Source of the DNA: a virus
Strand: one strand, 5' to 3'
Virus record (IMG/VR): IMGVR_UViG_3300045988_176431
Location: 160,001 to 224,000 of that record
DNA length: 64,000 nucleotides
Shown: positions 9,039 to 48,914 of the stretch, in pieces
Numbering within the stretch: the stretch's first letter is position 1
How the letters are laid out: the number at the start of each line of letters is the position of its first letter
Notes under the pieces: model-generated
Told to the model about the DNA's origin: nothing
What the model saw: only the letters and a program-made list of their open reading frames with translations
Databases searched by the model: none
Program-made: the position numbers and the translations under genes

Positions 9039-9049
9039 AGCAATAAAAA

Positions 9050-9081
9050 TTGACATGTCTAGAAATTTCTAGACATGTCAA
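9050..9081. terminator. Bidirectional terminator, perfect 32-nt palindrome
   Basis: TTGACATGTCTAGAAA|TTTCTAGACATGTCAA between the convergent portal and tube genes, with A/T runs on both sides. Confidence 0.8.
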
Positions 9082-9097
9082 TTTATTTTTTATTTCA

Positions 9098-16890: not shown

Positions 16891-16937
16891 TTTTATTCTC
16901 ACCTACTTTCCTTAAGTTAATGTTTTTTAGGGATAAA

Positions 16938-23466: not shown

Positions 23467-25194
23467 TTAAACAAAATCTGCATTATCAAATGCAATATCA
23501 CCCTGAATACCCTGAACATGTGCATTCGTATATCTGGATGTTCCCATCAGATATGTAGCCGAACCACCTGGAAGATCAGGAGAACGATATGCAGAGTTTG
23601 CAGCTGTCATAATATGAGAAGAATATTTCCAATGCTTGAAGGTAATTGTATCCTTCGTTGTTGGGAATGGAATAATTCTCAACGTATTCATAGAAGAAGC
23701 GTTGATCTTCATAGCAGATACAACCTTAACTTTGATGTTTCCGCTTGTCATAACACCATAACTGTAATTCAGTTTAACACCTCCAACAGTATCGCCCTGA
23801 CGAACAACCCAGTTTACATTAGGGTCAAGCAGAGAGATATAACGAGGGTTACCATAAATTACGAATGTTAAATCTTCCAACTTAGCTGTATCAGCTAACT
23901 GGATTAAGAAACGATCAATCGTAAACTTCAACTGAGTTGCAATGAACTCACTTGGAAGTGCAGTTGTAGCGATTGTAGAATCACAATCGAAACGATGCTT
24001 AGCAACAAATGGATTGAAGTCAAGCGGATCTAAAACTGCTCCATCATATTTCTTAAACATCTCATCAAGATAATCAAGTGTCTGACTATCTTCCATCTGA
24101 ACAAGGATGTCGTTCAGATTTACATATGTCTTCTTATACAGATCTTCATTCAGAAGAGCTTTTGCATCTTCCAACTGCTCAAGAGAATATGGAATATCTG
24201 TACGGAATCCATCTTCAATCTTCCACTCCATGTCTTCACGAGTGTAATCCCAAGTTACAGCTCTTTCATTCTTTTCGTTTGAAAGATATCCTGTGAAGCT
24301 TACACCTTTAATCTGACCAGATGCAGAAGATAATGTAATTTTATTTGTTACAAAGTCACAGAAACCTGTTACGATATCGTTAACAGTAACATCCTCTTTA
24401 GTTTTGTTCTGAACTTTAACATCACGGATTACTCCGCCTACCCACTGACCATCTGCAAGATTTACAGTCATAGGTCTCTTAAGAACAACTTCTGTTCCAT
24501 CTTCAAGATAAACTTTATCAATCTGAATATTGATTGTAATGTTTTCACGTGTTGGGATAGAAGCATCTGTAAGTTCATCAATGATATCATAATCAAAGAG
24601 AGGAAGATTTACCTGCTTAGTATTAATCGGAAGACCTTTACCAGCTTTGAAAATCTCTTTATATTCATCATTGAAGAAGCACTGTGGGTACTGCCATCTC
24701 TTCTGTGTCTTAGGGTCAACTACCCATGTACGCTCAATCTGTTTCTTGATTACTGGAGATTTTGTAATCTCAGTATCAACAATGGCTTTCGAAATACATT
24801 TTGCATGAGAACGAACAACCAACGGCAAATCTACAGACTTAACAGGTAACAAGTTACCAACACGTGTAGACTCCATTACAAGGTCATTTACTGTATTATC
24901 ATACAACTGAGAAACTTCTTCGTATAAGTTTCCAGGTGTCAATTCACCATCTTCTCCTACAGACTCATTATAGAATCCAGACAGAAGAGCATCTTTAAAA
25001 GTATCAATCAGTTCCTTGCTTTTGATAAACGTGTTTACTTCTGTTTTGTAATCACAAGCACCGGATACTGCGTTTGCAGCTTCAGTAAACAAAGAATCGA
25101 AATCATTTGCAGATTGATTCATACTGAATCCGCCTACTGTGGCAGTTTCTTCGAAATTACTACCACTCTCGGTTAAAAATGGTAATCCATTCAT
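23467..25194 (-). CDS. Putative major capsid protein
   Basis: Track ORF 23467..25218; the ATG at 25194 has RBS AAAGGAG. 575 aa. GC and codon usage differ from the neighbours, and the gene has its own strong terminator. It follows an acidic scaffold-like gene. No diagnostic motif was recognised. Confidence 0.5.
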   Translation of the reverse strand: MNGLPFLTESGSNFEETATVGGFSMNQSANDFDSLFTEAANAVSGACDYKTEVNTFIKSKELIDTFKDALLSGFYNESVGEDGELTPGNLYEEVSQLYDNTVNDLVMESTRVGNLLPVKSVDLPLVVRSHAKCISKAIVDTEITKSPVIKKQIERTWVVDPKTQKRWQYPQCFFNDEYKEIFKAGKGLPINTKQVNLPLFDYDIIDELTDASIPTRENITINIQIDKVYLEDGTEVVLKRPMTVNLADGQWVGGVIRDVKVQNKTKEDVTVNDIVTGFCDFVTNKITLSSASGQIKGVSFTGYLSNEKNERAVTWDYTREDMEWKIEDGFRTDIPYSLEQLEDAKALLNEDLYKKTYVNLNDILVQMEDSQTLDYLDEMFKKYDGAVLDPLDFNPFVAKHRFDCDSTIATTALPSEFIATQLKFTIDRFLIQLADTAKLEDLTFVIYGNPRYISLLDPNVNWVVRQGDTVGGVKLNYSYGVMTSGNIKVKVVSAMKINASSMNTLRIIPFPTTKDTITFKHWKYSSHIMTAANSAYRSPDLPGGSATYLMGTSRYTNAHVQGIQGDIAFDNADFV

Positions 25195-25320
25195 TTTTTT
25201 CACTCCTTTAATTTTCATTTTATTATTTCTGTTTTTTCACATCTTTTTGAACCCTCAGATTCAAATAATAAAATAGACATTACTTTGGATTTCTTTTATT
25301 TATATGTTTTATCATAAGAA

Positions 25321-26202: not shown

Positions 26203-28446
26203 TTAAATGAAATTACTATTCAATTGTACACGATGCTTCTCAGCCGTTAATTTATCTTTGATTCTCATCAATTTATATTTTTCCTGCTGATCACCGTTTG
26301 CGTTTGCATCATTAATCTTTTCTTCACAAATGCGAATTTCAGTCTCTAATTCACGTGTTAATTCATTACGGATTCTTCTATCTTTATCTTTTGAAAAATG
26401 ACGAATTAACATAGCAAATGGAAGAGAGGATAATTTATATCTAGCAGCTCCACCATATAAAAGAGCCCACTTCGCATTTCTAAAGATTTTATGACGATAT
26501 CCAGGTTTTAAGAAAAATTCTTTTCGTCTTTTTACATCCATCTTATTAAAAGAATCTGTAAACTTTTTAACAGAATTTAACCAACCTTTTGGACCAGCCA
26601 TAATAGCTTTACCAGCATTTTTTAATTTTGTATTTTTTTCTTGACGAATTCCACGTTTCTGTTGACGTGCAGCTTCAGCATCAATTGCTTTGTTTTGAAT
26701 TTTGGTAGGGAGGTCTTCTTTTGGTTTTTGTGGTTTTACATTGGTTTTCTCTTTATCACCATGAATCTCTCTTCTAAATTCTTCAACTTCTTCATCTTTA
26801 TCTTTCGATGCTTCCACATATGCACTATCTATATAATATTTACTTGTTTTACGTACCTGAACATATATCTCAAATACAGGAATTCTATCAATAGTTTCGT
26901 CATTATATGTAACTTTGAAATCATTATCATATTTTTGGAATTTTTCTTTAATTTCTTTTTTTATATCTGCTATTTTTGTATCGGTTAGTGATTCTTTTTT
27001 AAAAGTACCAACCCATAAGCCTATACATTTTCCTTTGTAAAAATCTTCATTTATTTTTTCAGGATTATAACCATTTTCACATTTTAAGTTAAAACTTTTC
27101 ACAATATTCATTATAGTATGAAATGCATTTTTTCTGGCATCATAATTTTCTTTATTTGCTTCTTTCCAGTCTTTTCTTATTTTATTACCATCTTCATCAT
27201 AATCAAATAATTCATCTTCTTCTGATTCAGATTTCTTAACTGCATCTTCTTTTGCTTTTTTCTTTTCTTCTTCTTTCTCATTCTTTTCTTTTTCAATCTG
27301 TTTTTGTGTCATAATATGTTTTTTAATAACCGAATCTGGTTCTCCATTATCAGTCCATTCCATCATCGCAATGTCAGATGAAATATCATCAATATAATCC
27401 TCATACTTTTCTACAATTTCAGATACTTCATCTTCATCATCATGAGAAAGAATTTCAAAATCACGACAAGACTCATAGTAATTCTTTAATGATTTCAAAT
27501 AATCATATTTTTTGCATTTATTGATATCATTTACAATAGAATCTCCTGTTGTACATTCATAGATATCTTCTAAAGCAGCAGTCAATCCCATAAAATGATT
27601 CGTTGATTCTGTATAGGTTAATTCAGGTTTTTTAAGTCCAATGCTTATTAATCCTTTAATATAAATCTTTGTATTAAATGGCATTGTATCAATACGTGAC
27701 ATAACTAATTCATCTTTTCCAATAATGGATACTGCTCTTGCAGTATCCATTTTATATCTTTCAATATCAATAGAACTAGAATCGCTTACTATACCTGGTT
27801 GATTATCTTGATTATCATAAACGGCAGATCTAGCAACATGCCTTACAAGGTCTTCTAATAAATATGCACGAGTATATCCATTGACTAGAAAATATGCGAA
27901 TAAAGTAATTCTTGTATTTGGTTCAATACAATAAATAACGACTGAATTTATTATATCAGTTAATTCTTTTTCACATCCTGTTTCAGATATTTCATAAATA
28001 TAATCAAATACAGTATTTAGCATCTCTTCTCCACCACTTTTACAAGCAATCATTGAAAGATTTATTGTATTCTTTAATACTTTAAGTTCATCATCCAGAA
28101 TTTCTTTTATCTCATAATATAATCCAGTACCATTATCATAATCCATATTAAGTCCGTTACATTTATTAATTTTCTCCTCCACAATTGTTTGCACTGATGC
28201 TATTTTATGAAAAGGAATAAAATTATTGTTTACAATATCAAGAATGAATCTTGCTCCAAAATAACACCCTTCCGAAAGAATTAATGAAAGATTCTTAAGG
28301 ATAAATGACAAAGATTCATCTTTATACGTATTATAAAATTCTTGAGCGGTCTCTTCTGTATAATTCTTCTTCAATTCTTCATATTTTTTATCGAATCTTT
28401 TTTGAGGAGTCCCATTAAGAATTTCATCTTTATTTAAGATACTCAT
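26203..28446 (-). CDS. Large hypothetical virion-module protein (K/E-rich centre, basic C-terminus)
   Basis: 747 aa, first gene of the minus-strand head block. Confidence 0.6.
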   Translation of the reverse strand: MSILNKDEILNGTPQKRFDKKYEELKKNYTEETAQEFYNTYKDESLSFILKNLSLILSEGCYFGARFILDIVNNNFIPFHKIASVQTIVEEKINKCNGLNMDYDNGTGLYYEIKEILDDELKVLKNTINLSMIACKSGGEEMLNTVFDYIYEISETGCEKELTDIINSVVIYCIEPNTRITLFAYFLVNGYTRAYLLEDLVRHVARSAVYDNQDNQPGIVSDSSSIDIERYKMDTARAVSIIGKDELVMSRIDTMPFNTKIYIKGLISIGLKKPELTYTESTNHFMGLTAALEDIYECTTGDSIVNDINKCKKYDYLKSLKNYYESCRDFEILSHDDEDEVSEIVEKYEDYIDDISSDIAMMEWTDNGEPDSVIKKHIMTQKQIEKEKNEKEEEKKKAKEDAVKKSESEEDELFDYDEDGNKIRKDWKEANKENYDARKNAFHTIMNIVKSFNLKCENGYNPEKINEDFYKGKCIGLWVGTFKKESLTDTKIADIKKEIKEKFQKYDNDFKVTYNDETIDRIPVFEIYVQVRKTSKYYIDSAYVEASKDKDEEVEEFRREIHGDKEKTNVKPQKPKEDLPTKIQNKAIDAEAARQQKRGIRQEKNTKLKNAGKAIMAGPKGWLNSVKKFTDSFNKMDVKRRKEFFLKPGYRHKIFRNAKWALLYGGAARYKLSSLPFAMLIRHFSKDKDRRIRNELTRELETEIRICEEKINDANANGDQQEKYKLMRIKDKLTAEKHRVQLNSNFI

Positions 28447-28569: not shown

Positions 28570-30852
28570 ATGGCAACTGAAAGAGATTTAAATGTTTCTT
28601 TACATAAAAGAGAAACAAATGAAGTCTTAAATCTTTATCCAGAAACAAAGACAGAAAATGTTCATGTTACAGATGAACAAACTCTTGATAAATATTTATC
28701 ATTACAAAATAAAATAAATGAATCTTATTTAAAAGATTCAAAAAAATTAAGTCAAATAGAAGATGGAGCTCAGAAAAACCAGAATGCTTTTTCTGCAGTA
28801 AAATCAGGAAATTTTTTAGTAGAAGCATCTAAAGCAAAAGATACTCTGGAACTTATTGCTGGTAGCAATATTTCTATTGATATTATTGATGATAAGATTA
28901 CTTTTAATGCAGGTAAAACAGATGTTACAAAAGCAGATGCTACAACAGATGGTCTGATGAGCAGTAAGGATTATAAAAAACTTCAAAATATTGAAGAAAA
29001 TGCTAATAATTATGTTCATCCATCATCTGGTGTAGTTCCTAATACTTATATTCGTGTAACTGTAGATAAGAATGGTCATGTAACAAAAGGAAATAATGAT
29101 GTATTAAAAATTTCTGAGGGTGGTACTGGTGTAAGTACATTATTAGAACTTAAAAATTTAATTGGTTCAGGTAATATTGATATGGAGTATTCTGTTAAAG
29201 AAAACTCGTCAAATCCTGTTACATCATCAGGTATTTATAAAGCGTTACAGGAAAAAGCGAATACGAATCATGGAAATCATGTTCCAGATAGTTCAGATTC
29301 ACCTGATTCTTTTTCTTTCTTAAAAGAAGGAAATGTATGGGAATCAATTCCAAGTGGAAATACTTCACAAAAAGGTGTTATTCAATTAACAAATGAAATT
29401 GGTGATAGTGAATCTTTAGGAGTAAGTCAAAAAGGGTTAAAATCACTATCAGACTCCATAACAACAAAGATTGATAGTTTAAAAGGAAGCCCTGAATCAG
29501 GATTAGATACATTAGAAAAAATCGCAACTCGAGTTAATACAAATAGTACAGAATTAAGTAATCATACAAGTAATAGTACAATTCATATTACTGCTGATGA
29601 AAGAAAGAAATGGAATGCTAAGTCAGATGTTAAATTAGATACTGAATTATCTAATACATCTACAAATGCTATTAGTAATAAAGCAATAACAGATGCCTTA
29701 ACAACTCATACAAGTAATAGTACAATTCATATTACTGCTGATGAGAGGACTAAGTGGAATGGTATTTTAGAAAAAGCAAAAGCATATACTGATGAGAAGT
29801 ATGGTTCTATTGACAAAATAGATTTTTATGTGATTGAATCTGGTACTCATGAATCAATCACATCTCCATCTAATTCATTAATTTATTTAGAGAAAGCATC
29901 TTCAGGAACACAATATGAATCATGGATTTACAGAGATAAATGGATGAATATCGGCTCTGATGATTTAAATCTTGATAATTATTATAATAAAACTGAAGTT
30001 GTCAATTTAATCAATAATTCAAAACTTACAGTAGACACTGCTTTATCTTCTACTTCTGAAAATCCTGTTCAGAATAAAGTAATTAATTCTGCATTAGGAA
30101 ATAAAGCAAATAGTAGTGAATTAAGTACTCATACAAGTAATACTACAATTCATATTACTGCTGAAGATAGAAAGAGATGGAATGATGCTGCATCTAGTAC
30201 TGTTACAGTAGATACTACTTTATCTAATACATCTACAAATGCTATTAGTAATAAAGCAGTAAAAGATGCCTTAGATAATAAAGCAAACAATACTAACTTA
30301 ACAAATAAAGTAGATAAAGTAAATGGAAAAGGATTATCTACAAATGATTTTACAAACGCATTAAAATCTAATTATGATAATGCATATGCACATTCAACAA
30401 GTGCTCATGCACCATCAAATGCTGAAAGAAATGTAATATTAGGTATTCAAAAGAATGGGATTGATATAACTCCGAATACAAGTACGCGAAAGGTAAATAT
30501 TACAGTTCCCAAAAAAATAAGTGAATTATCAAATGATTCTGGTTATATAAGCAAGCACCCATCTGTAGAAACAGAGCCAGATACATCATCAAGCAAATCA
30601 ATCAATATAAAAACTGGAGATTCATTTGATGTAGTTGATTCAGTAACAAGAGATTCAAATGGTCATGTAACAAAGATAAATGTAAAAACAGTTACTGTAC
30701 CAAAACATGATAACTCAGGTGGAGGTGTTGTTAGAAGTAAAACAGCTCCAAAGGATACAACAGTATTATGGATTGATATTAGCAGTACAAACGAAATTCC
30801 TAAATATTATAATGGAACAGTTTGGATTACATTACCAGCAGTATGGGGGTGA
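28570..30852 (+). CDS. Tail fibre protein (paralogue A)
   Basis: Repeated fibre motifs: TTDGLMSSKDYKKLQNIE; S-x-N-[PA]-[VI]-x-[NS]-K-[AV]-[IV]-x-x-A-L-x-x-K-A (x5); and H-I-T-A-[DE]-[DE]-R-x-[KR]-W-N (x3). Confidence 0.75.
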   Translation: MATERDLNVSLHKRETNEVLNLYPETKTENVHVTDEQTLDKYLSLQNKINESYLKDSKKLSQIEDGAQKNQNAFSAVKSGNFLVEASKAKDTLELIAGSNISIDIIDDKITFNAGKTDVTKADATTDGLMSSKDYKKLQNIEENANNYVHPSSGVVPNTYIRVTVDKNGHVTKGNNDVLKISEGGTGVSTLLELKNLIGSGNIDMEYSVKENSSNPVTSSGIYKALQEKANTNHGNHVPDSSDSPDSFSFLKEGNVWESIPSGNTSQKGVIQLTNEIGDSESLGVSQKGLKSLSDSITTKIDSLKGSPESGLDTLEKIATRVNTNSTELSNHTSNSTIHITADERKKWNAKSDVKLDTELSNTSTNAISNKAITDALTTHTSNSTIHITADERTKWNGILEKAKAYTDEKYGSIDKIDFYVIESGTHESITSPSNSLIYLEKASSGTQYESWIYRDKWMNIGSDDLNLDNYYNKTEVVNLINNSKLTVDTALSSTSENPVQNKVINSALGNKANSSELSTHTSNTTIHITAEDRKRWNDAASSTVTVDTTLSNTSTNAISNKAVKDALDNKANNTNLTNKVDKVNGKGLSTNDFTNALKSNYDNAYAHSTSAHAPSNAERNVILGIQKNGIDITPNTSTRKVNITVPKKISELSNDSGYISKHPSVETEPDTSSSKSINIKTGDSFDVVDSVTRDSNGHVTKINVKTVTVPKHDNSGGGVVRSKTAPKDTTVLWIDISSTNEIPKYYNGTVWITLPAVWG

Positions 30853-30858
30853 TAAAAA

Positions 30859-32361
30859 ATGTTGACAGCAAATGAATTAATTGAATTAAAAAAACTGATT
30901 GATGCACAGATAAAGAGACGATGTGGATATGGACCAATGCAAGAAGTTGGTGATTTCGAAGAAACACCAAAAGCAGGTGGAATTATAAAAGCAGAACAAG
31001 GAGAAAAAATTATTTCTCCCATTCTTGAAGTAGAAGATGTATCGGGATTAACTTTAACAATAGATTCGTATCATACCTCTACAACAAATTTAAAAGCTCA
31101 TATCGAAGTGGGAACTCCAATTCCTAAAAATTTTAATAAAAATTTATTTGATATTGTACATAAGCTATCAGAAGAAACGATGCAAAATCAAGCATCATGT
31201 TGTCGTGGTGCGTGTACAGGACTTTGCTATGGTACATGCTCATCGTTTTGTAGTGGGTGTTCTGGTAGTTGCGGTACAGGTTGTGGGTCAAATTGTACAA
31301 AAACGTGTGGAAATAGTTGTGGAAACTGTACAAGATCATGTACGGCAACTTGTGGAGGAAGTTGTTTTGCTTCATGTGGTGCTGATTGTACTGGAGGATG
31401 TACTGGATCATGTTCTGCAGGTTGTGATGGATGTTCTGGTAGTTGTGGTACTGCATGTACATCCGGATGTACAGGATGCTCTGGATGTTCTAATGGTTGT
31501 ACTGGTAGTTGTGAAAATGGCTGTGAGTTTGGTTGTATACATGGATGTAAAGGCTGTACTGGCACTTGTGGAAATAGTTGTAGTGGTTGTCAAGGATGTA
31601 CTACTGGTTGTTCTGGAGGATGTTCAGGATGTAAGGCATCATGTGGTTCTGAATGTGCAGCATCATGTGGAAATAAATGTACTGGATGTGGTGACAGTTG
31701 TCACAGTGATTGTGGTGGATCATGTTCAAATTCCTGCTCAAATTTCTGTGCTAACGGATGTAATACTTGTTCATCTGGTTGCACAGGTGGATGTACTGGG
31801 CATTGTTATGGATGTACAGGTACTTGTGGTAATACTTGTGGTGGAGGATGCGGCTCTACATGTTCAAGCAGTTGCATTGGTTGTTCTGGATGCGGTGGAA
31901 CATGTTCTTCTAGTTGTGGTGGATGTACTACGACGTGTGACCATAGTTGTTCGGGATGTTCTGCAAGTTGTGGTGGATGTGACGGTGATTGTGCGAATTC
32001 ATGTGCAGGTTGTTTTGGTTGTTCTACAAGTTGTAATGGATGTAGTTCATCTTGTTCTACAAGTTGTAATGGATGTTCAAAAACATGTGGCGGATGTTCA
32101 AGTTGTTCTGGATGTTCTACAAGTTGTGGTAATGCGTGTACATCTGGATGTGCTGGATGTTCTGGATGTAGTTCATGTACTGCTGGTTGTTCAGATTCAT
32201 GTAATGGATGTGTTGGTTGTTCAATATCATGTGGAAATGGATGTTCTGGATGTAGTTCAAATTGTCAAGGAGTATGCAAAAACTCATGCTTTAGTACATG
32301 TACATCAACATGTTTCGGAAATTGTACAGGATCATGTTATGGTTCTCTAACATCGATATAA
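30859..32361 (+). CDS. Cysteine mega-repeat protein: 113-aa ordinary N-domain plus ~385 aa of C-x2-3 repeats
   Basis: RBS GGGGGTG, 7 nt after the fibre gene stop. From residue 114 to the end every 3rd or 4th residue is Cys (CGTG CGSN CTKT CGNS...), about 104 Cys by hand count. The remaining residues are almost only G/S/T/N/A/D. Confidence 0.8.
   Translation: MLTANELIELKKLIDAQIKRRCGYGPMQEVGDFEETPKAGGIIKAEQGEKIISPILEVEDVSGLTLTIDSYHTSTTNLKAHIEVGTPIPKNFNKNLFDIVHKLSEETMQNQASCCRGACTGLCYGTCSSFCSGCSGSCGTGCGSNCTKTCGNSCGNCTRSCTATCGGSCFASCGADCTGGCTGSCSAGCDGCSGSCGTACTSGCTGCSGCSNGCTGSCENGCEFGCIHGCKGCTGTCGNSCSGCQGCTTGCSGGCSGCKASCGSECAASCGNKCTGCGDSCHSDCGGSCSNSCSNFCANGCNTCSSGCTGGCTGHCYGCTGTCGNTCGGGCGSTCSSSCIGCSGCGGTCSSSCGGCTTTCDHSCSGCSASCGGCDGDCANSCAGCFGCSTSCNGCSSSCSTSCNGCSKTCGGCSSCSGCSTSCGNACTSGCAGCSGCSSCTAGCSDSCNGCVGCSISCGNGCSGCSSNCQGVCKNSCFSTCTSTCFGNCTGSCYGSLTSI
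31198..32358 (+). repeat. Low-complexity C-x2-3 coding tract (TGT/TGC every 9-12 nt)
   Basis: Cryptic periodic tract, locally GC-enriched. It generates long spurious ORFs in other frames and on the opposite strand. Confidence 0.85.
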
Positions 32362-32395
32362 CAAAAAAATAACAAAATATAAAGGAGTGAAAAAA

Positions 32396-32683
32396 ATGAA
32401 TATATTAAGATGTAAAAATGGTTCTTTTAAAATTGAAAATGTGCGTGAATATATTAATTTTCAAAATGGAACACCGAAAAGATACATTGATATTCAATCA
32501 ACAAATAGTATCACTTCATTCGATGAAGTAGCTGATGTATTGACAAAAGATACCGTAAAGGAATTTGAAATTCTCTCAGAATCTGGTGTAATATTAGATA
32601 CAATTAAAAATGTAAAATTAACAAATATTAATAAAGACATTTCAAATTCAGTTTCTATTGTTATTAACTTCGAAAAAGAGTAA
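32396..32683 (+). CDS. Hypothetical protein
   Basis: Track ORF 32387..32683, with the ATG at 32396 after AAGGAG. Confidence 0.6.
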   Translation: MNILRCKNGSFKIENVREYINFQNGTPKRYIDIQSTNSITSFDEVADVLTKDTVKEFEILSESGVILDTIKNVKLTNINKDISNSVSIVINFEKE

Positions 32684-32698
32684 AGGAGTTGATTCTTC

Positions 32699-33004
32699 AT
32701 GATAACTATTAAATTTGATAATGGTATACGGATTAATCCTGATTCGTATGGTTATCTAAAGAATAAAATGGTAAAATTACTCTTTTATAAAGATTATAAT
32801 GAAGAAGACTTGATACGGAAAATAGGATATGCGAAAGACCAAAAATTTACTTTAATTATTGATTTACCTGGAAGAGAAAAAGAAATTCGTTGTGTTAATT
32901 TCCATTTCTCTTCCATGATAAAACATATAAAAGGAAGTAATGGAAAAGAAATATCAGATGATTCTGTACAATATCTTGAAATTTTTTTTAACAAGGAGGT
33001 GTAA
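32699..33004 (+). CDS. Hypothetical protein
   Basis: RBS AAGGAG, 101 aa. Confidence 0.6.
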   Translation: MITIKFDNGIRINPDSYGYLKNKMVKLLFYKDYNEEDLIRKIGYAKDQKFTLIIDLPGREKEIRCVNFHFSSMIKHIKGSNGKEISDDSVQYLEIFFNKEV

Positions 33005-33007
33005 AAT

Positions 33008-34501
33008 TTGTCTTTTTTTAATGATAAATTTTTAACCGAAGTAAGTAATTACGAATATCAAAAGAGTTATGAAAAAAAATCACTTGTATTATATAATAAT
33101 CATATTTATATTGCAAAAAAAGATACAAATGAAAAAATTGTTCCTGAAACAACAACTGATGATTGGGAATATATTAGTTACGACGATTGTATTAATATCA
33201 TTGCCAATATTGGCTCTTTTACAGGTGATTCTTATTTAGGTACAAAAAAATATCCATTTATGGGAACCATATTACAAAATTCTATTCAGATTTTACAAAA
33301 GAATAAAGTAAATCGACCAGGATATTTTTCTAATATTAAATTTGGAAAAGATATCGTAGATGATAATAATGCAACGAATTTTGGTGTTTTATATGACATT
33401 GATAATGAAAATCCAAAGTTAATTGCTATGACAAATGCATTAAATGAAGTAGATTTGGGAACTGGACAATTTTGTTTTAATAATATTTATTCTAGTTCAC
33501 CAACTATTACTATTTCAGATGACGATAAAATAGCATCTACAAAAGATATCAATACAAATGATTATACAAATTTCTTTATGAGTTTAACACCAAAAGGTTA
33601 TATTCTCACAAATGAAAATGGAACAAGTGGTAGAATGCATATTGGTTTTGCTGCTACTGATGTAGAAAAAGCATTAAAAGAAAACAATCTTTCACCTGAT
33701 GATTTTGCACCACTTGTAAAAATCCCTGTATTAAAAAAAGATTTATATGTAGACCATTCAATTAATGATTTGATGTTAAAACGTTTTCATTATGAAGATG
33801 GTGAAGAAGTTTCTGATGAGGATGAAAATGAACATGAAACAGGTGAAAGTTTAATACGTTATATTAAATTACCGATTTATCGAAAGAATATTGGATATTT
33901 TGTATTTAAAAATTATCCAATTGATCCAAATACAGAAACAAATGATGATGCAACAATCATTGTAAAAGAATTAGAATTAATTCCATTTGATAAAAACAAA
34001 AAATCATTAAAGATTAACTTTAACAAAGCTCGATTAAAAGAGAACTATAATGATGAATTTGAATGTCGTAGTAATATGGAAGTATTAGAAGATGGGTCAT
34101 TAAAGATTACTTTTACAGGTGATAAACTTTCAGATCCATTTGCTTATATTACAGCAAGAGTATCTTTAAATGATATCAATGCAGAGAAAGCATATGATTT
34201 ATCAAAATATGAATATCTTAAAATCGTAAGTGATTATAAGAGACCATACTTAATTGGTTTTGATGAATTTCAATCAAGTGAAGAAAATACAGCATATCAT
34301 CCATATCAAACGAATGAATTTGGAGATTTCTACTGTTATTCACAAGATGACCAATATAGTGTAGAAAGTTATATCTATGCTCTTAGATATGATGAATTCA
34401 TCGCTTTAAATACTATGATGATTCAAAATCAACAAAAACAAATTAATGAATTAAAAACTGAAATATTGAATATCATATCAAAAATAAAAAATATTAAATA
34501 A
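33008..34501 (+). CDS. Fibre-associated protein with a peptidase S74-like (intramolecular chaperone) segment
   Basis: TTG start after AAGGAGG. TKDINTNDYTNFFMSLTPKGYILTNENGTSGRMHIGFAATDVEKAL resembles the S74 pattern (SDxRLK...HIGLIAQEVE). Terminal coiled coil NQQKQINELKTEILNIISKIK. Confidence 0.4.
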   Translation: MSFFNDKFLTEVSNYEYQKSYEKKSLVLYNNHIYIAKKDTNEKIVPETTTDDWEYISYDDCINIIANIGSFTGDSYLGTKKYPFMGTILQNSIQILQKNKVNRPGYFSNIKFGKDIVDDNNATNFGVLYDIDNENPKLIAMTNALNEVDLGTGQFCFNNIYSSSPTITISDDDKIASTKDINTNDYTNFFMSLTPKGYILTNENGTSGRMHIGFAATDVEKALKENNLSPDDFAPLVKIPVLKKDLYVDHSINDLMLKRFHYEDGEEVSDEDENEHETGESLIRYIKLPIYRKNIGYFVFKNYPIDPNTETNDDATIIVKELELIPFDKNKKSLKINFNKARLKENYNDEFECRSNMEVLEDGSLKITFTGDKLSDPFAYITARVSLNDINAEKAYDLSKYEYLKIVSDYKRPYLIGFDEFQSSEENTAYHPYQTNEFGDFYCYSQDDQYSVESYIYALRYDEFIALNTMMIQNQQKQINELKTEILNIISKIKNIK

Positions 34502-34516
34502 TGGAGGAAATGAATT

Positions 34517-34852
34517 ATGACAAAAAAATTTAAAATTGAAATTACACAGGAAGCAATTGATTATGTACAGAGAATTGGATATGAGGTAGATGGTTTTACT
34601 CATATTATTAATTCCTTATTTGAACAGCATAAGAATGATATCGATGATTCTGTAATTAAAAGTGTGCCTTTCCAGACTTACCAAAAGAAATTCTTTAAGG
34701 TAAAAGCTGAATATGAATTAGCAAAACAGGCACTTGAGAAGGAATTGAAAAAGAAAGTAATTGAGAAAACGGGAATTGAAGATCCTAAATTCTCATGGAA
34801 TATTCCTGACTTCCAAGAATTAATTGTAGATATTGAAGTTGAGGAGGACTAA
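34517..34852 (+). CDS. Small helical protein coupled to the radical SAM gene (possible maturase partner)
   Basis: RBS GGAGG; the stop lies 3 nt before the radical SAM ATG. 111 aa. Confidence 0.6.
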   Translation: MTKKFKIEITQEAIDYVQRIGYEVDGFTHIINSLFEQHKNDIDDSVIKSVPFQTYQKKFFKVKAEYELAKQALEKELKKKVIEKTGIEDPKFSWNIPDFQELIVDIEVEED

Positions 34853-34855
34853 AAA

Positions 34856-36190
34856 ATGAATGGTAGAGTTCGTAAATTTGAGCAATGGCAAGACATGCTT
34901 GGAAGACTCTATCCAGAATTTAGAAAAAATAGTGACGGTTCAGATAAAGTATTATCTCGAACCGTCACTTTTCAGGTGACGGATAGATGTTCTCTCGCTT
35001 GTACTTATTGCTATCAGATTAATAAAAAAACAAGAGTTATGAAATTTGAGTATGCTAAAAAATTAATTGATGCTTTATTAGAAGGAGATGAAAAATTCTC
35101 TGACTATGTAAACGTTGATACCTCGCCAGGAATCATTATCGAATTTATCGGTGGTGAACCTTTATTAGAGCCAGAATTAATCGAACAAATCTGTGATTAT
35201 TTCGAAAAAAGAGCAATCGAGTTAATGCATCCTTGGGCATTACATCATGAATTTTCAATTTGTTCAAATGGCGTTGCTTACTTTGAACCAACGGTACAAC
35301 ATCTTTTAAATAAATATCGTCATAAACTTTCTTTTTCTGTTACAATTGATGGAAACAAAGAACTTCATGATTCTTGTCGAGTATTTCCAGATGGTGTAAC
35401 AGGAAGTTATGATTTAGCAGTTGCTGCAGCACAAGATTGGATTAATCACGGTGGTTATATGGGTAGTAAAATAACAATTGCACCTGGAAACATTAAATAT
35501 ATTTATGATGCAATCACTCATATGGTCGAATTAGGATATCAAGAAATCAATGCAAATACAGTATACGAAAAAGGATGGACAATTGAACATGCTAAAATCT
35601 TTTATCAAGAATTAAAAAGAATTGCTGATTATTGGATTGATCATAATATTGTTGAATCTCATTTTTTGGCATTATTTAGTGAAAATTTCTTTAAACCAAA
35701 AGATGAAAAAGATTTAGATAACTGGTGTGGTGGTAATGCTTTAATGTTATCAATGGATCCAGATGGGTATCTATATCCATGTATTCGTTATATGGAATCA
35801 TCATTGGGAGATGAAAGAGAACCATATCGAATTGGTCATGTTAATGTTGGAATTGCACAAGATGAATGTACTCATAATTGTGTAGAGTGTCTAAGAAAAA
35901 TAACAAGAAAAACACAATCAACAGATGAATGTTTTTATTGTCCAATTGCAGAGGGTTGTAGTTGGTGCACGGCTTACAATTATCAAGAAACTGGTACTCC
36001 AGATAAAAGAGTTACCTATATTTGTGATATGCATAAAGCAAGAGCATTAGCAAATGTTTACTTCTGGAATAAATGGTATATAAAAACAAAACAAAATAAA
36101 GTATTTAAAAATCATGTACCAGATGATTGGGCTCTTACAATTATTGATAAGGATGAATTAGATTACTTGAAGAGTTTAGAAAAACGATAA
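34856..36190 (+). CDS. Radical SAM enzyme with a C-terminal SPASM domain (peptide-maturase / anSME-like)
   Basis: CSLACTYCYQ is the CX3CX2C radical SAM cluster motif. WCGGNALMLSMDPDGYLYPC and CVECLRK...CFYCPIAEGCSWC are the SPASM auxiliary-cluster cysteines. Confidence 0.85.
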   Translation: MNGRVRKFEQWQDMLGRLYPEFRKNSDGSDKVLSRTVTFQVTDRCSLACTYCYQINKKTRVMKFEYAKKLIDALLEGDEKFSDYVNVDTSPGIIIEFIGGEPLLEPELIEQICDYFEKRAIELMHPWALHHEFSICSNGVAYFEPTVQHLLNKYRHKLSFSVTIDGNKELHDSCRVFPDGVTGSYDLAVAAAQDWINHGGYMGSKITIAPGNIKYIYDAITHMVELGYQEINANTVYEKGWTIEHAKIFYQELKRIADYWIDHNIVESHFLALFSENFFKPKDEKDLDNWCGGNALMLSMDPDGYLYPCIRYMESSLGDEREPYRIGHVNVGIAQDECTHNCVECLRKITRKTQSTDECFYCPIAEGCSWCTAYNYQETGTPDKRVTYICDMHKARALANVYFWNKWYIKTKQNKVFKNHVPDDWALTIIDKDELDYLKSLEKR

Positions 36191-36193
36191 AAA

Positions 36194-36229
36194 ATATGAG
36201 AGATAAGGAAATTTCCTTATCTCTCATAT
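36194..36229. terminator. Bidirectional terminator, perfect palindrome
   Basis: ATATGAGAGATAAGGAAATTTCCTTATCTCTCATAT between the convergent radical SAM and endolysin genes. Confidence 0.8.
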
Positions 36230-36235
36230 TGCTTT

Positions 36236-37111
36236 TTACCATTTAATATTTTTTGTAGCAACCCATTTACCGGTTCCAATATTAGTCCAATATTTTCTCT
36301 TACATACAATACTTACAGTATCACCTGCTTTGAGTTTACCGATTTTTTTCGATACTTTCTTATTTGTTTTACGAATATAACTATTCTTTTTTAATTTCTT
36401 CGTTGGATATTTACTAAGTCCAATTGTATTAAGGGCTGTATTTTTCATATATCCAGTTTTACCCTTATAATATACTTTAGACCATCCATCTTTCATATCT
36501 TTTAAGATATTCACATAGATTCCTTTATCTAATTTTGCAATAACACCCTTCTTAACATCCTGAGTTTTGTAAATCTTACAAACTACTTTTGTTTTAGAAG
36601 AACGTGTTTTGCCTTTCCCTTTAACGTTTGCCCCATTATAATCTACGCCATCAATTTTACCATAATATGTAAAATCTTTTGCTCTCTCTTCCCATGTGGA
36701 GATTGTGCAATCTTTTGCTGTAGAACGTGCTTCATAGATATATGCTTTTCCTTCATCATTCACATGAATCAAAGCAATATGTCCTTGATACCAGATTCCC
36801 ATTCCATCTACAACATGACTATCATTACTCACTTTATGGCATACTTTAAAACTATCTTTAATACCAGTAGAACCACCGTGGTTTGTTCCAGTTGCTTTAC
36901 CAACAAACCCAGAACAATCAATACCGATTTTTCCTACTTTATTCATAGCCATTGATTTAATAGATCTTGTAAATACAGAAGGGTACATTCTAGCAAGATT
37001 CGAAACACCTGCTTTAGTTACTTTCGTTCCTTTGTATCCATACACATATACATATCCATCTTTAATCATTCTTCTTGCATTCTTGCAAGCATCTGATGCT
37101 TTAACAGACAT
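36236..37111 (-). CDS. Endolysin: NlpC/P60 endopeptidase plus two SH3b-like domains
   Basis: GIDCSGFVGKATG is the catalytic Cys motif. HIALIH follows. The C-terminal GWSKVYYKGKTGYM and YWTNIGTGKWVATKNI are SH3b-like. Track ORF 36236..37129; the ATG at 37111 has the better RBS. Confidence 0.7.
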   Translation of the reverse strand: MSVKASDACKNARRMIKDGYVYVYGYKGTKVTKAGVSNLARMYPSVFTRSIKSMAMNKVGKIGIDCSGFVGKATGTNHGGSTGIKDSFKVCHKVSNDSHVVDGMGIWYQGHIALIHVNDEGKAYIYEARSTAKDCTISTWEERAKDFTYYGKIDGVDYNGANVKGKGKTRSSKTKVVCKIYKTQDVKKGVIAKLDKGIYVNILKDMKDGWSKVYYKGKTGYMKNTALNTIGLSKYPTKKLKKNSYIRKTNKKVSKKIGKLKAGDTVSIVCKRKYWTNIGTGKWVATKNIKW

Positions 37112-37170
37112 ATAGACACTTCCTTTCATTTATTTTTTATTTTCTCTTAATTATATGTCTAAAAAATAGT

Positions 37171-48080: not shown

Positions 48081-48914
48081 TTAATTATTTACATTCATTA
48101 AAGTATCAAAATTTTCTTTGTACTTACCAGTTAATGAACCATAAGAATATGTAATCTCATTGATTCGATCCGCTGATTTCATATTTAAAATCTGAGATTG
48201 AAGATGATTAAATAAAGTCGTATTATAAACAACATATTTCATCGCACCAGCATAAACTGCTTTAATCTCATTAGATGTAAATACACGACACATTGTCTTT
48301 GATGAATGATACATAACAATTGCAGATGGATCATTTAATACGGTATCATATAATGATTTAATATTAATTTGATCTGTTTCTGTTAAATCAAAATGTTCTG
48401 TACCAACTGTTGTTTGAAGATCAATACCATGATAAATGGTAGATTTACAAATTTCACTTAATTCTGAAATTTTATTCATCTTAATCAATTCAAGTTTTTT
48501 ATTCTCAAGTTCTGATATTTTGTTTTCATCAAGAATCCATTCATCTTCAGTTATCTCTTTTTCAACTTTTTTTGTGATTATAGAACCAGATTCATCTAAT
48601 TTTACTCGATTACTAACTTCAGTTCCTTCTGGTAAAGAAGAAATCTCATCTTCGGGTACCTTTACTTCTTCTACAATTGTTTCTGTTGTAGGATTTCCAT
48701 CTTTATCAGTGGTTTCTTGTTCTTTAGTTACTTTATAGTAATATTCTAATTCAGGAACTTCTTCTGTGATTGTTTTTGTTACTTTATCATATTTATAACA
48801 TAACTGATTTTCTTCAGGTGGTAGTGATTTTACTAATGTGCCACCAGAAATATCTCCAGTTAAAGAATATGATCCAGTAAAAAATTTATTTTCATCTAAT
48901 AATACTGAAATCAT
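48081..48914 (-). CDS. Fibre-associated protein with a DUF4376-like C-terminal domain
   Basis: Overlaps the fibre gene stop (ATGA). The C-terminal FDLTETDQINIKSLYD...NEIKAVYAGAMKYVVYNTTLFNHLQSQI resembles DUF4376. From memory only. Confidence 0.4.
   Translation of the reverse strand: MISVLLDENKFFTGSYSLTGDISGGTLVKSLPPEENQLCYKYDKVTKTITEEVPELEYYYKVTKEQETTDKDGNPTTETIVEEVKVPEDEISSLPEGTEVSNRVKLDESGSIITKKVEKEITEDEWILDENKISELENKKLELIKMNKISELSEICKSTIYHGIDLQTTVGTEHFDLTETDQINIKSLYDTVLNDPSAIVMYHSSKTMCRVFTSNEIKAVYAGAMKYVVYNTTLFNHLQSQILNMKSADRINEITYSYGSLTGKYKENFDTLMNVNN

Follow-up and report, generated by a model that had tools for sequence, protein, structure and literature searches.

Does a phage use a RiPP-type maturase on a protein of its own virion module? 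The question is raised by a 444-aa ORF, which a first reading of the sequence alone had interpreted as a peptide-modifying radical SAM (rSAM)/SPASM enzyme, coupled to a small ORF and paired with a Cys-repeat protein encoded upstream in the same tail-fibre operon. To our knowledge, no rSAM/SPASM chemistry of this kind has been described outside small secreted RiPPs and one enzyme subunit (QhpC). The window, i.e. the whole stretch of DNA analyzed here, spans 64 kb of a jumbo phage (~249 kb) whose host is an anaerobic Firmicute. Since this phage encodes NrdD, and since Clostridia and other taxa of gut or anaerobic habitats make up most of the hosts of related prophages, we take its setting to be anaerobic. 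The features on which the argument draws are as follows.

27724 to 27751, + strand: hairpin resembling a terminator (12-bp stem, then a T run), which probably marks the 5' limit of the transcription unit
28570 to 30852, + strand: first operon gene, 760-aa tail or minor-tail-like repeat protein (phrog_27373, 2.6e-12; phrog_3285, 4.3e-5)
30859 to 31197, + strand: N-terminal domain (aa 1-113) of the Cys-repeat protein, conserved across lineages; RBS GGGGGTGA before the ATG at 30859
31198 to 32361, + strand: Cys-repeat region (aa 114-500), putative substrate, with 104 Cys at 3- or 4-residue spacing
32387 to 32683, + strand: 98-aa ORF between target and enzyme, from the ORF list, not conserved in other lineages
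32699 to 33004, + strand: 101-aa ORF, from the ORF list, not conserved in other lineages
33008 to 34501, + strand: 497-aa tail-fibre-like protein (phrog_7121, tail fiber, 6e-10)
34517 to 34852, + strand: 111-aa partner, predicted divergent TIGR04116 homologue (profile-profile comparison, position, RBS GGAGG)
34856 to 36190, + strand: radical SAM/SPASM maturase of the CXXX-repeat-target family, TIGR04115 (496 bits, invariant cysteines, RBS GAGGAGG)
36193 to 36230, bidirectional: intrinsic-terminator-like hairpin with a 17-bp stem, closing the operon immediately after the rSAM stop

Judged from this layout, the region from 28570 to 36190 is a predicted late tail-fibre operon bounded by terminators. 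A simple terminator scan of the + strand found no hairpin between 27724-27751 and 36193-36230 that is comparable in strength to these two, in agreement with the earlier statement that no terminator lies between the Cys-repeat ORF and the enzyme. The closing hairpin separates the rSAM gene from a convergent gene encoding a 297-aa SH3-domain protein. The target gene (30859), the 111-aa ORF and the rSAM gene each have their own RBS. The 497-aa protein also showed a weak, sub-threshold match to Peptidase_S74 (endosialidase chaperone; 18.3 bits against a 22-bit cutoff). Unlike the usual arrangement, the window has three genes (2.5 kb) between the target and the enzyme.

The 444-aa enzyme belongs to the TIGR04115 family of CXXX-repeat-target maturases. 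Its best NCBIfam match was to this model (rSAM_Cxxx_rpt; 496 bits, E 8e-149, cutoff 350), with a lead of ~330 bits over the next family. The other families scored 168 (PapB), 97 (QhpD), 91 (CcpM), 90 (SCIFF), 89 (HxsB) and 46 bits (anSME), and the PapB, QhpD, CcpM, SCIFF and anSME models each fell under their own cutoffs (340 for PapB NF047865, 453 for QhpD, 425 for SCIFF TIGR03974 and 349 for anSME TIGR03942). QueE appeared only as a trace PHROG match (E 0.0038) and PqqE was absent among the 25 families listed; the comparison of models proposed in the first reading thus favoured the CXXX-repeat maturase. These scores bear directly on one alternative, namely that the rSAM is a nucleotide, cofactor or sulfatase-type enzyme and that the Cys-repeat ORF lies nearby by coincidence. 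Phages often carry rSAMs of nucleotide metabolism, as this one does (NrdD), and the QueE-like trace points the same way; against this, the nucleotide and cofactor families were absent or negligible beside TIGR04115, and the constant pairing of the two genes described below leaves a coincidence practically refuted.

The CX3CX2C motif read from this ORF (CSLACTYCYQ, C45/C49/C52) is present, and its three cysteines are invariant in an alignment with nine homologues of 37-75% identity. Seven SPASM cysteines (C291, C309, C359, C362, C368, C371 and C390) are likewise invariant in these ten sequences, among them C309 of PDGYLYPC and the four (C359/362/368/371) of CFYCPIAEGCSWC. A full SPASM set had been proposed and is indeed found, including its PDGYLYPC segment, but the 'CVEC' cysteines assigned to it are not conserved and lie outside the set. 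CteB (5wgg) was the only solved structure reached by sequence (E 2e-14), and the alignment begins at CteB residue 93, leaving the phage rSAM without an N-terminal RRE domain. Phage-type rSAMs bear extensions of ~10 aa at the N-terminus and ~22 aa at the C-terminus. Three close homologues (P0045, P0098 and P0104) already carry the CXXX-repeat maturase name at JGI and NCBI. No near-identical DNA was found among GenBank phages, and in a collection of 50,697 phage records no isolated phage had a close rSAM homologue; the matches there were two contigs of uncultured 'Bacteriophage sp.', and L002, one of the pair, is bacterial-looking. The rSAMs of SPN3US/phiEaH2-like jumbo phages were rejected as relatives (24% identity, different family).

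The candidate substrate, encoded at 30859-32361 on the same strand and 2.5 kb 5' of the rSAM gene, is the product of the sole Cys-periodic ORF in the window, exactly as had been read from the sequence. This 500-aa protein consists of a 113-aa N-domain and the Cys-repeat region, and contains 105 Cys in total, with 72 Cys-Cys intervals of four residues and 30 of three. The residues between the repeat Cys are Ser, Thr, Gly and Asn. Both the first repeats (SCCRGACTGLCYGTC) and a C-terminal cap (...CFSTCTSTCFGNCTGSCYG) are conserved, and the array framed by the N-domain and these caps is highly variable in length across lineages (19-145 Cys). DNA-level tandem repeats in the array are weak and short; a recent DNA tandem repeat was for this reason rejected as its origin, and the Cys periodicity appears to be maintained at the protein level. 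The protein has no Pfam or NCBIfam match, and the NCBIfam target models TIGR04114/04117/04118, which are short and of low complexity, returned nothing for it even at E < 10. Elsewhere, TIGR04114 scored 21.3 against 20 on the L001 homologue, and TIGR04117 scored 43 against 50 on the canonical L002 target. The sole PHROG match, phrog_6085 (no assigned function), falls within the Cys-repeat region. Gene callers often truncate or miss Cys-repeat genes, which makes them largely invisible in current annotation.

The N-domain is kept in 42 non-redundant lineages, with the consensus MLTA.ELI.LK..V.AEM.RR.GYGSL...F...P..G..I.AEQG.K.I.PLL.I.D, and it occurs only fused to Cys repeats, both among the 14,538 ORFs of the loci and among 1.84 billion representative proteins. 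Exhaustive phmmer against the latter gave 32 matches, of which all genuine ones were N-domain plus CXXX proteins, and no link to any known domain; two long matches (P0133 and P0154) were rejected as spurious repeat proteins. Its predicted structure consists chiefly of three helices (AF2 pLDDT 60 overall, 74-81 in the helices), and Foldseek found no fold match for the model (E > 1). This model, which comprised the N-domain and 12 repeats (repeats <50), was uninformative on repeat conformation. Across phage-type loci the target proteins have 200-670 aa and the N-domain about 105-115 aa; short natural targets are the 193-aa L001 protein and the L119 type of ~184 aa. Some lineages possess an extra leaderless Cys-only gene without the N-domain, which is thus not obligatory for every substrate. 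In the L013/L018 lineage the N-domain and repeats are followed by a ~195-aa C-terminal globular domain, and this head-like domain matched no Pfam or PHROG family.

In bacteria, the CXXX-repeat system comprises the TIGR04115 rSAM, a second maturase (TIGR04119), a small protein (TIGR04116) and the TIGR04114/04117/04118 targets. The sequence-only reading had pointed out that enzymes of this family are accompanied by a 'CXXX repeat peptide modification system protein' of small size. Such a protein, TIGR04116, does belong to the canonical system; for the 111-aa phage protein the relationship is one of remote homology only, since no NCBIfam match was found for it even at E < 10 (the TIGR04116 cutoff is 50 bits). 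An hhalign comparison of 51 phage small-ORF sequences with 12 canonical TIGR04116 sequences nevertheless gave 93.8% probability (E 1.7e-7) over 91 collinear columns, against 0.1% for a reversed control and at most 1.5% for 20 column shuffles. In addition, nearly all sub-threshold matches of the canonical TIGR04116 HMM among 3,508 background ORFs occupied the small-ORF position. The profile evidence thus gives good support for regarding the 111-aa protein as a divergent remote homologue of TIGR04116, not an equivalog. An ORF of ~90-120 aa lies immediately 5' of the rSAM gene throughout the phage-type loci, and tblastn with four small-ORF queries produced matches in 120 of 156 loci; a word-indexed homologue search, too insensitive for such fast-evolving proteins, found four matches for the small ORF and one for the N-domain. 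Translational coupling to the enzyme, as proposed earlier, agrees with the arrangement of the two genes: the stop codon of the 111-aa ORF (TAA, 34850-34852) stands 3 nt ahead of the rSAM ATG, and the GAGGAGG Shine-Dalgarno sequence of the rSAM sits within the last codons of the small ORF.

The AF2 model of the 111-aa protein (pLDDT 80.8) predicts a beta strand, a long helical hairpin and then further beta strands. Its PDB matches were only generic helical hairpins (E > 0.3), and the best BFVD matches were uncharacterised gut-phage proteins of similar size. An RRE/PqqD-like domain was rejected, as the predicted fold is not that of an RRE. In L097, a natural tandem fusion joins two small-ORF modules in a 219-aa protein, which suggests that the small protein is a dimer. 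Because the enzyme has no RRE domain, we propose that the 111-aa protein is probably an adaptor or chaperone, a guess in which a dimeric helical hairpin would hold or present the substrate.

The three-gene association is conserved well beyond the window. Among the phage-type loci with adequate flanks (at least 2.5 kb on both sides), a same-strand Cys-periodic ORF was found in 120 of 120, at a median distance of 408 nt 5' of the rSAM gene, and a phage enzyme without a Cys-repeat ORF, an arrangement that would speak against the proposed link, occurred in none (0/120). A co-occurrence this complete is far beyond chance, and the pairing also held after dereplication by rSAM identity, in 24/24 clusters at 60%, 47/47 at 80% and 56/56 at 95%. 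From these data we infer that the Cys-repeat protein is the substrate of the rSAM. Altogether the system is represented by more than 3,400 homologous proteins and at least 537 IMG/VR contigs, as well as by many Clostridia prophages, including those of Lachnospiraceae, Oscillospiraceae, Faecalibacterium, Christensenellaceae and others. Cultured hosts with such prophages include Neglectibacter timonensis SN17 (L105), Desnuesiella massiliensis mt10 (L117), Anaerobacterium chartisolvens DSM 27016 (L127) and Eubacterium pyruvativorans i6 (L102). Extra ORFs of 178-221 aa are inserted between the target and the small ORF in Faecalibacterium and Oscillospiraceae lineages; these accessory ORFs, weakly related within sub-lineages and absent from the window, were rejected as a TIGR04119 replacement. 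The earlier interpretation as a whole, that of a RiPP-type maturase system with a Cys-repeat target, is supported by the TIGR04115 score and by this pairing.

The next question is what the modified protein would be for, and here the genomic position is the main evidence. Of 10 other lineages, 8 show a baseplate wedge, tail or tail-fibre family match for the gene directly 5' of the Cys gene (for the baseplate wedge, phrog_6 at 7e-67 and 7e-60), and Pfam families around L004-L011 include BppU_N, Phage_fiber_rpt, Mtd_N, Phage_tail_C and Prophage_tail. The window neighbours of the target likewise match tail and tail-fibre PHROGs. Altogether, at least 24 lineages, with siphovirus-like, myovirus-like and jumbo genomes among them, have the Cys gene in this position behind baseplate or tail-fibre genes. 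The target showed no homology to known fibre, anchor or receptor-binding domains in Pfam or NCBIfam, nor did the N-domain in Foldseek (E > 1). Fibre proteins usually combine a conserved anchor with a variable distal part. The target follows a fibre-like pattern, because conserved elements (the N-domain and caps) frame repeats of variable length. The claim that the maturase acts on a virion-module protein is accordingly upheld with respect to the module, for which conserved synteny and architecture speak, while incorporation of the protein into the virion is proposed from these two observations.

An alternative is that the Cys-repeat protein is indeed modified by the rSAM and serves as a RiPP-like accessory product outside the virion, an intracellular or released factor that happens to be transcribed together with late tail genes and acts in superinfection exclusion, host manipulation, lysis timing, or redox or metal buffering. 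In bacteria, the canonical homologues are small peptides with Tat signals for export rather than structural proteins, morons are common in phage late operons, and the N-domain is unlike any known structural domain. However, the phage target has no signal peptide, the surveyed neighbourhoods contain no protease or transporter, and a length of 200-670 aa is beyond peptide size. Moreover, morons are usually sporadic, whereas the place of the Cys gene is fixed across the lineages, one of which fuses the head-like domain to the target. We therefore regard an accessory product as unlikely, and the Cys-repeat protein as a probable virion component.

No published chemistry was found for TIGR04114-04119 in full-text literature searches, nor any publication on rSAM modification of phage structural proteins; the founding paper is that of Haft and Basu (2011). 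The expectation of thioether cross-links as the TIGR04115 product is consequently drawn from family resemblance. The five best-scoring other families all act on Cys-containing or Cys-rich substrates: three form thioethers (PapB, QhpD and the SCIFF maturase), and the other two (CcpM and HxsB) are maturases of Cys-rich or Cys-containing peptides. A different outcome would follow if the repeats were a metallothionein-like scaffold for metal or Fe-S clusters and the rSAM introduced modifications other than cross-links (formylglycine, dehydro-residues, epimerisation or C-methylation). The composition of the repeat region (~21% Cys, with CXXC/CXXXC spacing) recalls metallothionein-type ligand arrays, anSME and epimerase-type rSAM/SPASM enzymes are relatives, and the repeats contain few Asp and Glu residues as acceptors. 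Yet anSME stays far below its cutoff, the nearest families are those just named, and the conservation of both ends of the repeat array is more in keeping with the substrate of a processive enzyme, or with a folded shaft, than with a passive chelator. On this evidence we judge the metal scaffold very unlikely. The scarcity of Asp and Glu, the acceptors used by PapB and QhpD, also counts against the thioether reading; Thr and Asn, known acceptors of other thioether links, are common at the X positions and count in its favour.

We thus favour, with moderate confidence, a phage-adapted three-component CXXX-repeat maturation system (substrate, TIGR04115 rSAM and small partner) in a late tail-fibre operon, the product of which would be a thioether-stapled virion fibre. 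In the mechanism that we propose, the dedicated 113-aa N-domain would have taken over the place of the bacterial Tat signal peptide, ahead of ~100 CXXX/CXX repeats. In the anoxic host cytoplasm, the enzyme would reductively cleave SAM and remove a hydrogen atom from a carbon in the side chain or backbone of one of the repeat residues, and the resulting carbon could then be coupled to a neighbouring Cys thiolate on an auxiliary Fe-S cluster. Repeated processively along the target chain, such coupling would turn the Gly/Ser/Thr-rich chain into a string of small thioether macrocycles, that is, a rigid shaft resistant to proteases and reduction. By means of the N-domain the shaft may be attached to the baseplate or tail, and in some lineages the C-terminal head-like domain may contact the host. 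A more detailed picture, which we offer tentatively and at less than even confidence, is that of a tail appendage with the shaft stapled into a ladder of up to ~100 thioether macrocycles, assisted by a TIGR04116-like chaperone, and with a poly-G on/off switch of the receptor-binding head in one lineage (L013 type). The phage product may also differ chemically from the bacterial one, because TIGR04119, which the canonical system needs, is absent here.

If the target is an rSAM-modified virion component, this chemistry would extend to viral structural proteins, and on an uncommon scale, with ~100 sites per chain. Should the stapled-fibre reading hold as well, a viral structural protein would for the first time be a target of RiPP-type radical modification, and its covalently cross-linked fibre would be of a new kind. 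Such fibres would withstand proteases and reductants, an attraction for biomaterials and peptide engineering. The commonness of the system indicates that it matters for the survival or host recognition of human-gut phages. In turn, the phage version offers a handle on the TIGR04115 family, having three components, long and easily detected substrates, and prophages in cultured anaerobes.

Among known systems, tail fibres with repetitive shafts share with the phage locus the gene order of baseplate, fibre and small helper, a conserved N-terminal part, a variable repetitive distal part and an occasional C-terminal head. Some phage fibres have collagen-like or coiled-coil shafts and tail-fibre assembly chaperones. 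The phage Cys-repeat protein differs in having no detectable homology to known fibre domains, and we know of no fibre with a Cys-periodic shaft or a radical-SAM maturation factor.

The characterised rSAM enzymes resemble the phage enzyme to varying degrees. PapB, which acts on PapA to give the ranthipeptide freyrasin, is the best-scoring characterised relative, at 168 bits against its cutoff of 340. Both are rSAM/SPASM enzymes, and the substrate of PapB, in which repeated thioether rings are processively installed, has the same i to i+4 register as the putative phage substrate. The six links formed by PapB join Cys-S to Asp-C-beta within CX3D motifs; the enzyme tolerates spacings of 0-6 and binds its leader via an RRE (PMC9413430), a domain that the phage rSAM lacks. 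The acceptor Asp of PapA stands at i+4, where the phage repeats have the next Cys, and PapA, a short RiPP with a leader, has six motifs, as compared with ~100 repeats in the 500-aa phage target. QhpD, the third-best NCBIfam match of the phage rSAM, introduces multiple intramolecular Cys thioether cross-links into a protein subunit that is not a RiPP product (PMC8326336). That subunit, QhpC (quinohemoprotein amine dehydrogenase gamma subunit), is small and periplasmic, with three Cys-Asp/Glu links, no repeats and no phage context. CteB, the SCIFF maturase, also forms thioethers on Cys-rich Clostridial peptides; its acceptor is Thr C-gamma, and known rSAM thioether acceptors include Thr, Asn and Asp (PMC8326336), of which Thr is abundant in the phage repeats. 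CteB/SCIFF differs from the phage enzyme in its low score (90 bits, cutoff 425), its ~90-aa RRE domain and its 45-residue substrate.

The closest parallel is the bacterial CXXX-repeat system itself, for which the canonical loci were L002, L157 and L160-L171 (Bacteroidales, Veillonellaceae, Clostridium and others). The two share an rSAM family above the trusted cutoff, a same-strand gene cluster, a target with Cys at every fourth residue and small residues between, and a predicted homologous small partner, which in the phage version is divergent and without a TIGR04116 HMM match. With the L002 protein as query, which scores 235 bits on TIGR04119, tblastn detected TIGR04119 in 14 of 14 canonical loci, its presence being the criterion for this class; from the window and from the phage-type loci it is absent, and tblastn meets only the SPASM region of the rSAM itself. 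Canonical precursors are about 50-250 aa long and begin with a twin-arginine signal (SRREFFK), in contrast to the longer phage targets, which have lost this signal and carry the non-signal N-domain instead. Finally, the bacterial genes form a stand-alone cluster, whereas those of the phage are located in its tail module.

The 444-aa radical-SAM/SPASM enzyme is encoded at the end of a putative tail-fibre operon, and the features of this region are as follows.

23467-25218, minus strand: major head protein
27724-27751, plus strand: strong terminator-like hairpin (hairpin scan)
30859-32361, plus strand: putative target, 500 aa, the sole Cys-periodic ORF of the 64-kb window
34517-34852, plus strand: small ORF, 111 aa, with its stop 3 nt ahead of the enzyme ATG
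34856-36190, plus strand: radical-SAM/SPASM enzyme, 444 aa, motifs CSLACTYCYQ, PDGYLYPC and CFYCPIAEGCSWC
36193-36230, both strands: strong bidirectional terminator-like hairpin, directly 3' of the enzyme stop

The ribosome-binding site of the enzyme gene (GAGGAGG) lies within the last codons of the small ORF, which is preceded by its own GGAGG site. Since strong hairpins flank the region and the hairpin scan found none of similar quality between them on the plus strand, 28570-36190 looks like a single transcription unit. The sequence-only reading had described the same ORFs, with the small one coupled to the enzyme gene and the only Cys-repeat ORF 2.5 kb upstream on the same strand with no intervening terminator, and this layout was borne out in full. 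Three genes occupy the 2.5-kb gap, which is at the long end of the range. Past the operon, a convergent gene (36236-37129, minus strand) encodes a 297-aa protein with two SH3_3 domains (PF08239, 7.8e-12) and no PHROG match, which may be a cell-wall-binding lysin.

The enzyme matches the NCBIfam model TIGR04115, 'radical SAM peptide maturase, CXXX-repeat target family', at 496 bits (E 8e-149; cutoff 350 bits). PapB (168 bits), QhpD (97), CcpM (91), the SCIFF maturase (90), HxsB (89) and anSME (46) each scored under their own cutoffs, and Pfam gave weak generic Radical_SAM and Fer4_12 matches and nothing else. The proposed comparison of the CXXX-repeat model with anSME and other models thus came out in favor of the former. 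The enzyme is a genuine member of this known family, which is annotated automatically, and some of its homologues already bear the family name in JGI and NCBI. In the alignment of homologues down to 37% identity, the three cysteines of the CX3CX2C cluster (C45, C49 and C52) are invariant, as are seven of the SPASM region. Among solved structures, the sequence detected CteB alone (5wgg, E 2e-14). CteB has an RRE domain, whereas the window enzyme has no counterpart of it, as the alignment begins at CteB residue 93.

Several phage homologues of the enzyme (P0006, P0047, P0067, P0070, P0073, P0103, P0112, P0116 and P0117) are 580-776 aa long with Hint, intein-splicing or LAGLIDADG Pfam domains; in P0006 the intein interrupts the chain exactly ahead of C291 (window numbering; NW / intein / CGG), the first cysteine of the SPASM set. 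Separately, some 60 jumbo phages of the SPN3US/phiEaH2 type that infect Salmonella and Erwinia (SPN3US, SEGD1, phiEaH2, Machina and Huxley among others) encode one or two adjacent radical-SAM/SPASM proteins of phrog_1802, functionally unannotated and ~24% identical to the window enzyme.

As a positive control, we used a bacterial-looking contig found by tblastn (L002, MT837480), which encodes a Tat-signal CXXX peptide, a TIGR04115 enzyme (630 bits), a TIGR04119 'CXXX repeat peptide maturase' (235 bits) and a 91-aa TIGR04116 'CXXX repeat peptide modification system protein' (105 bits). This shows that the NCBIfam models work, and that the sequence-only reading was right about a maturase family with an adjacent small modification protein. 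Most canonical precursors start with a twin-arginine signal (…SRREFFK…; L002, L160, L162, L163, L165-L168), and several of these loci have 2-4 precursor paralogues in a row. Given these signals and the TatA- and TatC-like ORFs directly downstream in L002, the canonical bacterial products are probably exported after modification.

A scripted scan of all 171 loci fetched around homologues of the enzyme, covering Cys-periodic ORFs and relatives of the accessory proteins, divided them cleanly into two types. In 14 canonical loci, with enzymes 36-41% identical to that of the window, a short target with a ~45-aa N-terminal signal is accompanied by TIGR04119 and TIGR04116. In 156 phage-type loci (36-75% identity), the target is a large Cys-repeat protein, usually with an N-terminal domain of ~103-120 aa, an ORF of about 90-120 aa lies directly upstream of the enzyme gene, and neither TIGR04119 nor TIGR04116 was detectable by BLAST. 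Wherever a phage-type locus had 2.5 kb or more of flank on either side of the enzyme gene (120 loci), a same-strand Cys-repeat ORF was present (120 of 120), as it was in all clusters after dereplication by enzyme identity (24/24 at 60%, 47/47 at 80% and 56/56 at 95%); the median distance from target to enzyme was 408 nt. Eight phage-type loci had no such ORF, each being cut near the gene. Hence phages carrying the enzyme without a Cys-repeat ORF, which would have spoken against the earlier reading, were not found among the flanked loci.

The small ORF alone had no NCBIfam or PHROG match, and a word-indexed search gave 4 close relatives. ORFs in the equivalent position were gathered from the loci, giving 51 non-redundant phage sequences, and were compared by hhalign with 12 canonical TIGR04116 sequences. 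The two profiles aligned end to end, with 91 collinear columns at 93.8% probability (E 1.7e-7) and a score of 42.8 vs at most 15.6 for twenty column shuffles (probability ≤1.5%; reversed profile, 0.1%). Among 3,508 background ORFs of similar size, sub-threshold matches to the canonical HMM were almost exclusively ORFs in this position. Both groups share a beta strand followed by two helices, the first with …Y[IL]ERL.YE…, and a closing W.[LI]DF.T.E[LI]. In the AF2 model of the small ORF (pLDDT 80.8), both termini form a small sheet that closes a long helical hairpin; the predicted fold is not that of an RRE. The model retrieved generic hairpins only from the PDB, and its best BFVD matches were uncharacterised gut-phage proteins of 89-94 aa. 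In L097 (7337-7996) the partner has 219 aa and consists of two TIGR04116-like modules fused in tandem, which suggests that the single-module form may work as a dimer.

The target has 105 Cys, with Cys-Cys intervals of exactly 4 residues in 72 cases and 3 residues in 30. Its N-terminal domain (aa 1-113) is conserved across 42 non-redundant lineages and is followed by first repeats that share a strongly conserved motif, SSC[RK]G[AS]C[TS]GLC.G[TS]C; the C-terminal repeats are likewise conserved (…C.[ST]TC[ST][ST]TC[YF]..C…[YF]G), and the middle of the array is variable (19 to 145 Cys). The X positions are mostly Ser, Gly, Thr, Asn and Ala, with Asp and Glu rare, and the periodicity is maintained at the protein level, not through recent DNA repeats. 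Among 14,538 ORFs of the loci the N-terminal domain is always fused to Cys repeats, and a search of 1.84 billion representative proteins gave 32 matches, of which the two without Cys repeats were spurious. AF2 gave three moderately confident helices for this domain, with no match in the fold search, and no repeat structure was obtained.

Several variants of target organization were observed. In L013-L048 (IMG/VR contigs of ~30-61 kb; junction example, L013 9061-9140), a poly-G tract joins the repeats to a ~195-aa head-like domain ('...QAQAFGAVVSG'). Closely related contigs differ in this tract, which ranges from G4 to G9; the head is in frame with G5, or G7 plus GTAGTT, G4 and G6 reach a stop, and other contigs of the group lack the head entirely. 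This variation could reflect phase variation by slipped-strand mispairing, a site of frameshifting during translation, or sequencing error in the homopolymer. Two target genes are present in the lineage of L054-L091 and L096, to which a Blautia wexlerae MAG contig belongs: in L058 the first (8331-8861) encodes the N-terminal domain with only ~19 Cys and ends TAA TGA, and the second (8871-9668; GAGGAGG site, ATG) is leaderless, 265 aa, almost all Cys repeats (64 Cys). L008 has two full-length paralogous targets in tandem. In P0137 (435 aa) a ~95-aa Asn/Thr/Ile-rich Cys-less spacer splits the array, so the array can be modular. Public gene calls of these genes are often truncated, split or mis-framed (L004-L007, L010 and N-domain search matches; in L004, 15541-16446 vs the actual ORF 15078-16397), and many database entries are 63-190-aa fragments; the class is therefore under-represented in protein databases.

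In favor of a putative tail component, the genes flanking the target in the window match tail and tail-fibre PHROGs, and the Pfam domains BppU_N, Phage_fiber_rpt, Mtd_N, Phage_tail_C and Prophage_tail occur near homologues. In 8 of 10 further lineages the gene directly upstream of the Cys-repeat gene matches baseplate wedge (phrog_6), tail or tail-fibre families, which places the latter in a fibre slot. The small ORF and the enzyme gene hold the usual place of assembly helper genes. The L013/L018 target, with its N-terminal domain, repeats and ~195-aa Cys-less C-terminal domain, has the layout of an anchor, a shaft and a head. Against a tail role, no target domain, that C-terminal domain included, matches a known fibre family in NCBIfam, Pfam or PHROG. 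Elsewhere, a 990-aa protein (48911-51883, minus strand) shares the tail PHROGs phrog_27373, phrog_12754 and phrog_3285 with the 760-aa product of the first operon gene (28570-30852), and is a second, distant tail-protein paralogue on the opposite strand.

The window is part of a 249,343-bp contig (IMGVR_UViG_3300045988_176405) with genes for NrdD, a major head protein and the beta subunit of a multisubunit RNAP, and the source is therefore a jumbo phage of an anaerobe. A 1,168-aa ORF (13396-16902, minus strand) matches two RNAP beta PHROGs (aa 5-919) and, C-terminally, a 'virion structural protein' PHROG (aa 935-1166); with the head protein gene, this points to a jumbo phage with its own RNAP. 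No near DNA match to the window was found among 50,697 GenBank phage records. At E ≤ 1e-20 the enzyme has 3,428 homologues; identity among the best 120 is 59-76%, and many of these lie on contigs of 100-236 kb. Pattern scans found the system both in IMG/VR (at least 537 contigs) and in genome contigs (at least 561), the latter mostly of Clostridia with prophage-like surroundings, with a few Coriobacteriia and Mollicutes. On an Anaerosporobacter sp. MAG contig (JAVBNS010000130; L010/L094), the genes for SmpB and RNase R, next to which the tmRNA gene is typically found, lie within a few kb of a phage-type cluster; this is consistent with a prophage inserted at or close to ssrA.

The analysis establishes the enzyme family, the parts of the system and their conservation; the mechanism is a proposal. 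Thioethers are formed from Cys by three of the nearest other families (PapB, QhpD and SCIFF), and from this we infer a mechanism in which, in the anoxic cytoplasm, the enzyme would form intramolecular thioethers processively along the repeat array, and the small protein would act as an adaptor or chaperone standing in for an RRE. PapB joins Cys-S to Asp-C-beta at six places, within CX3D motifs, and tolerates spacings of 0-6 (PMC9413430); QhpD introduces its cross-links into a protein subunit, and the acceptors are Thr C-gamma for the SCIFF enzyme and Asn C-beta for the NxxcB enzyme (PMC8326336). Our literature search found no paper on the chemistry of the TIGR04115 family, and none in which a radical-SAM enzyme modifies a structural protein of a phage. 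The earlier interpretation, a CXXX-repeat maturase system in a phage, is supported; a presence of the product in the virion is putative, drawn from gene order and protein architecture, and with the product chemistry it is the main uncertainty.

The phage variant of the CXXX-repeat system appears to be undescribed. It has three components, in contrast to four in the canonical bacterial system, and its target is protein-sized, with a private N-terminal domain replacing the Tat signal; it is further distinguished by a fixed position in tail modules and a wide spread in gut phages.
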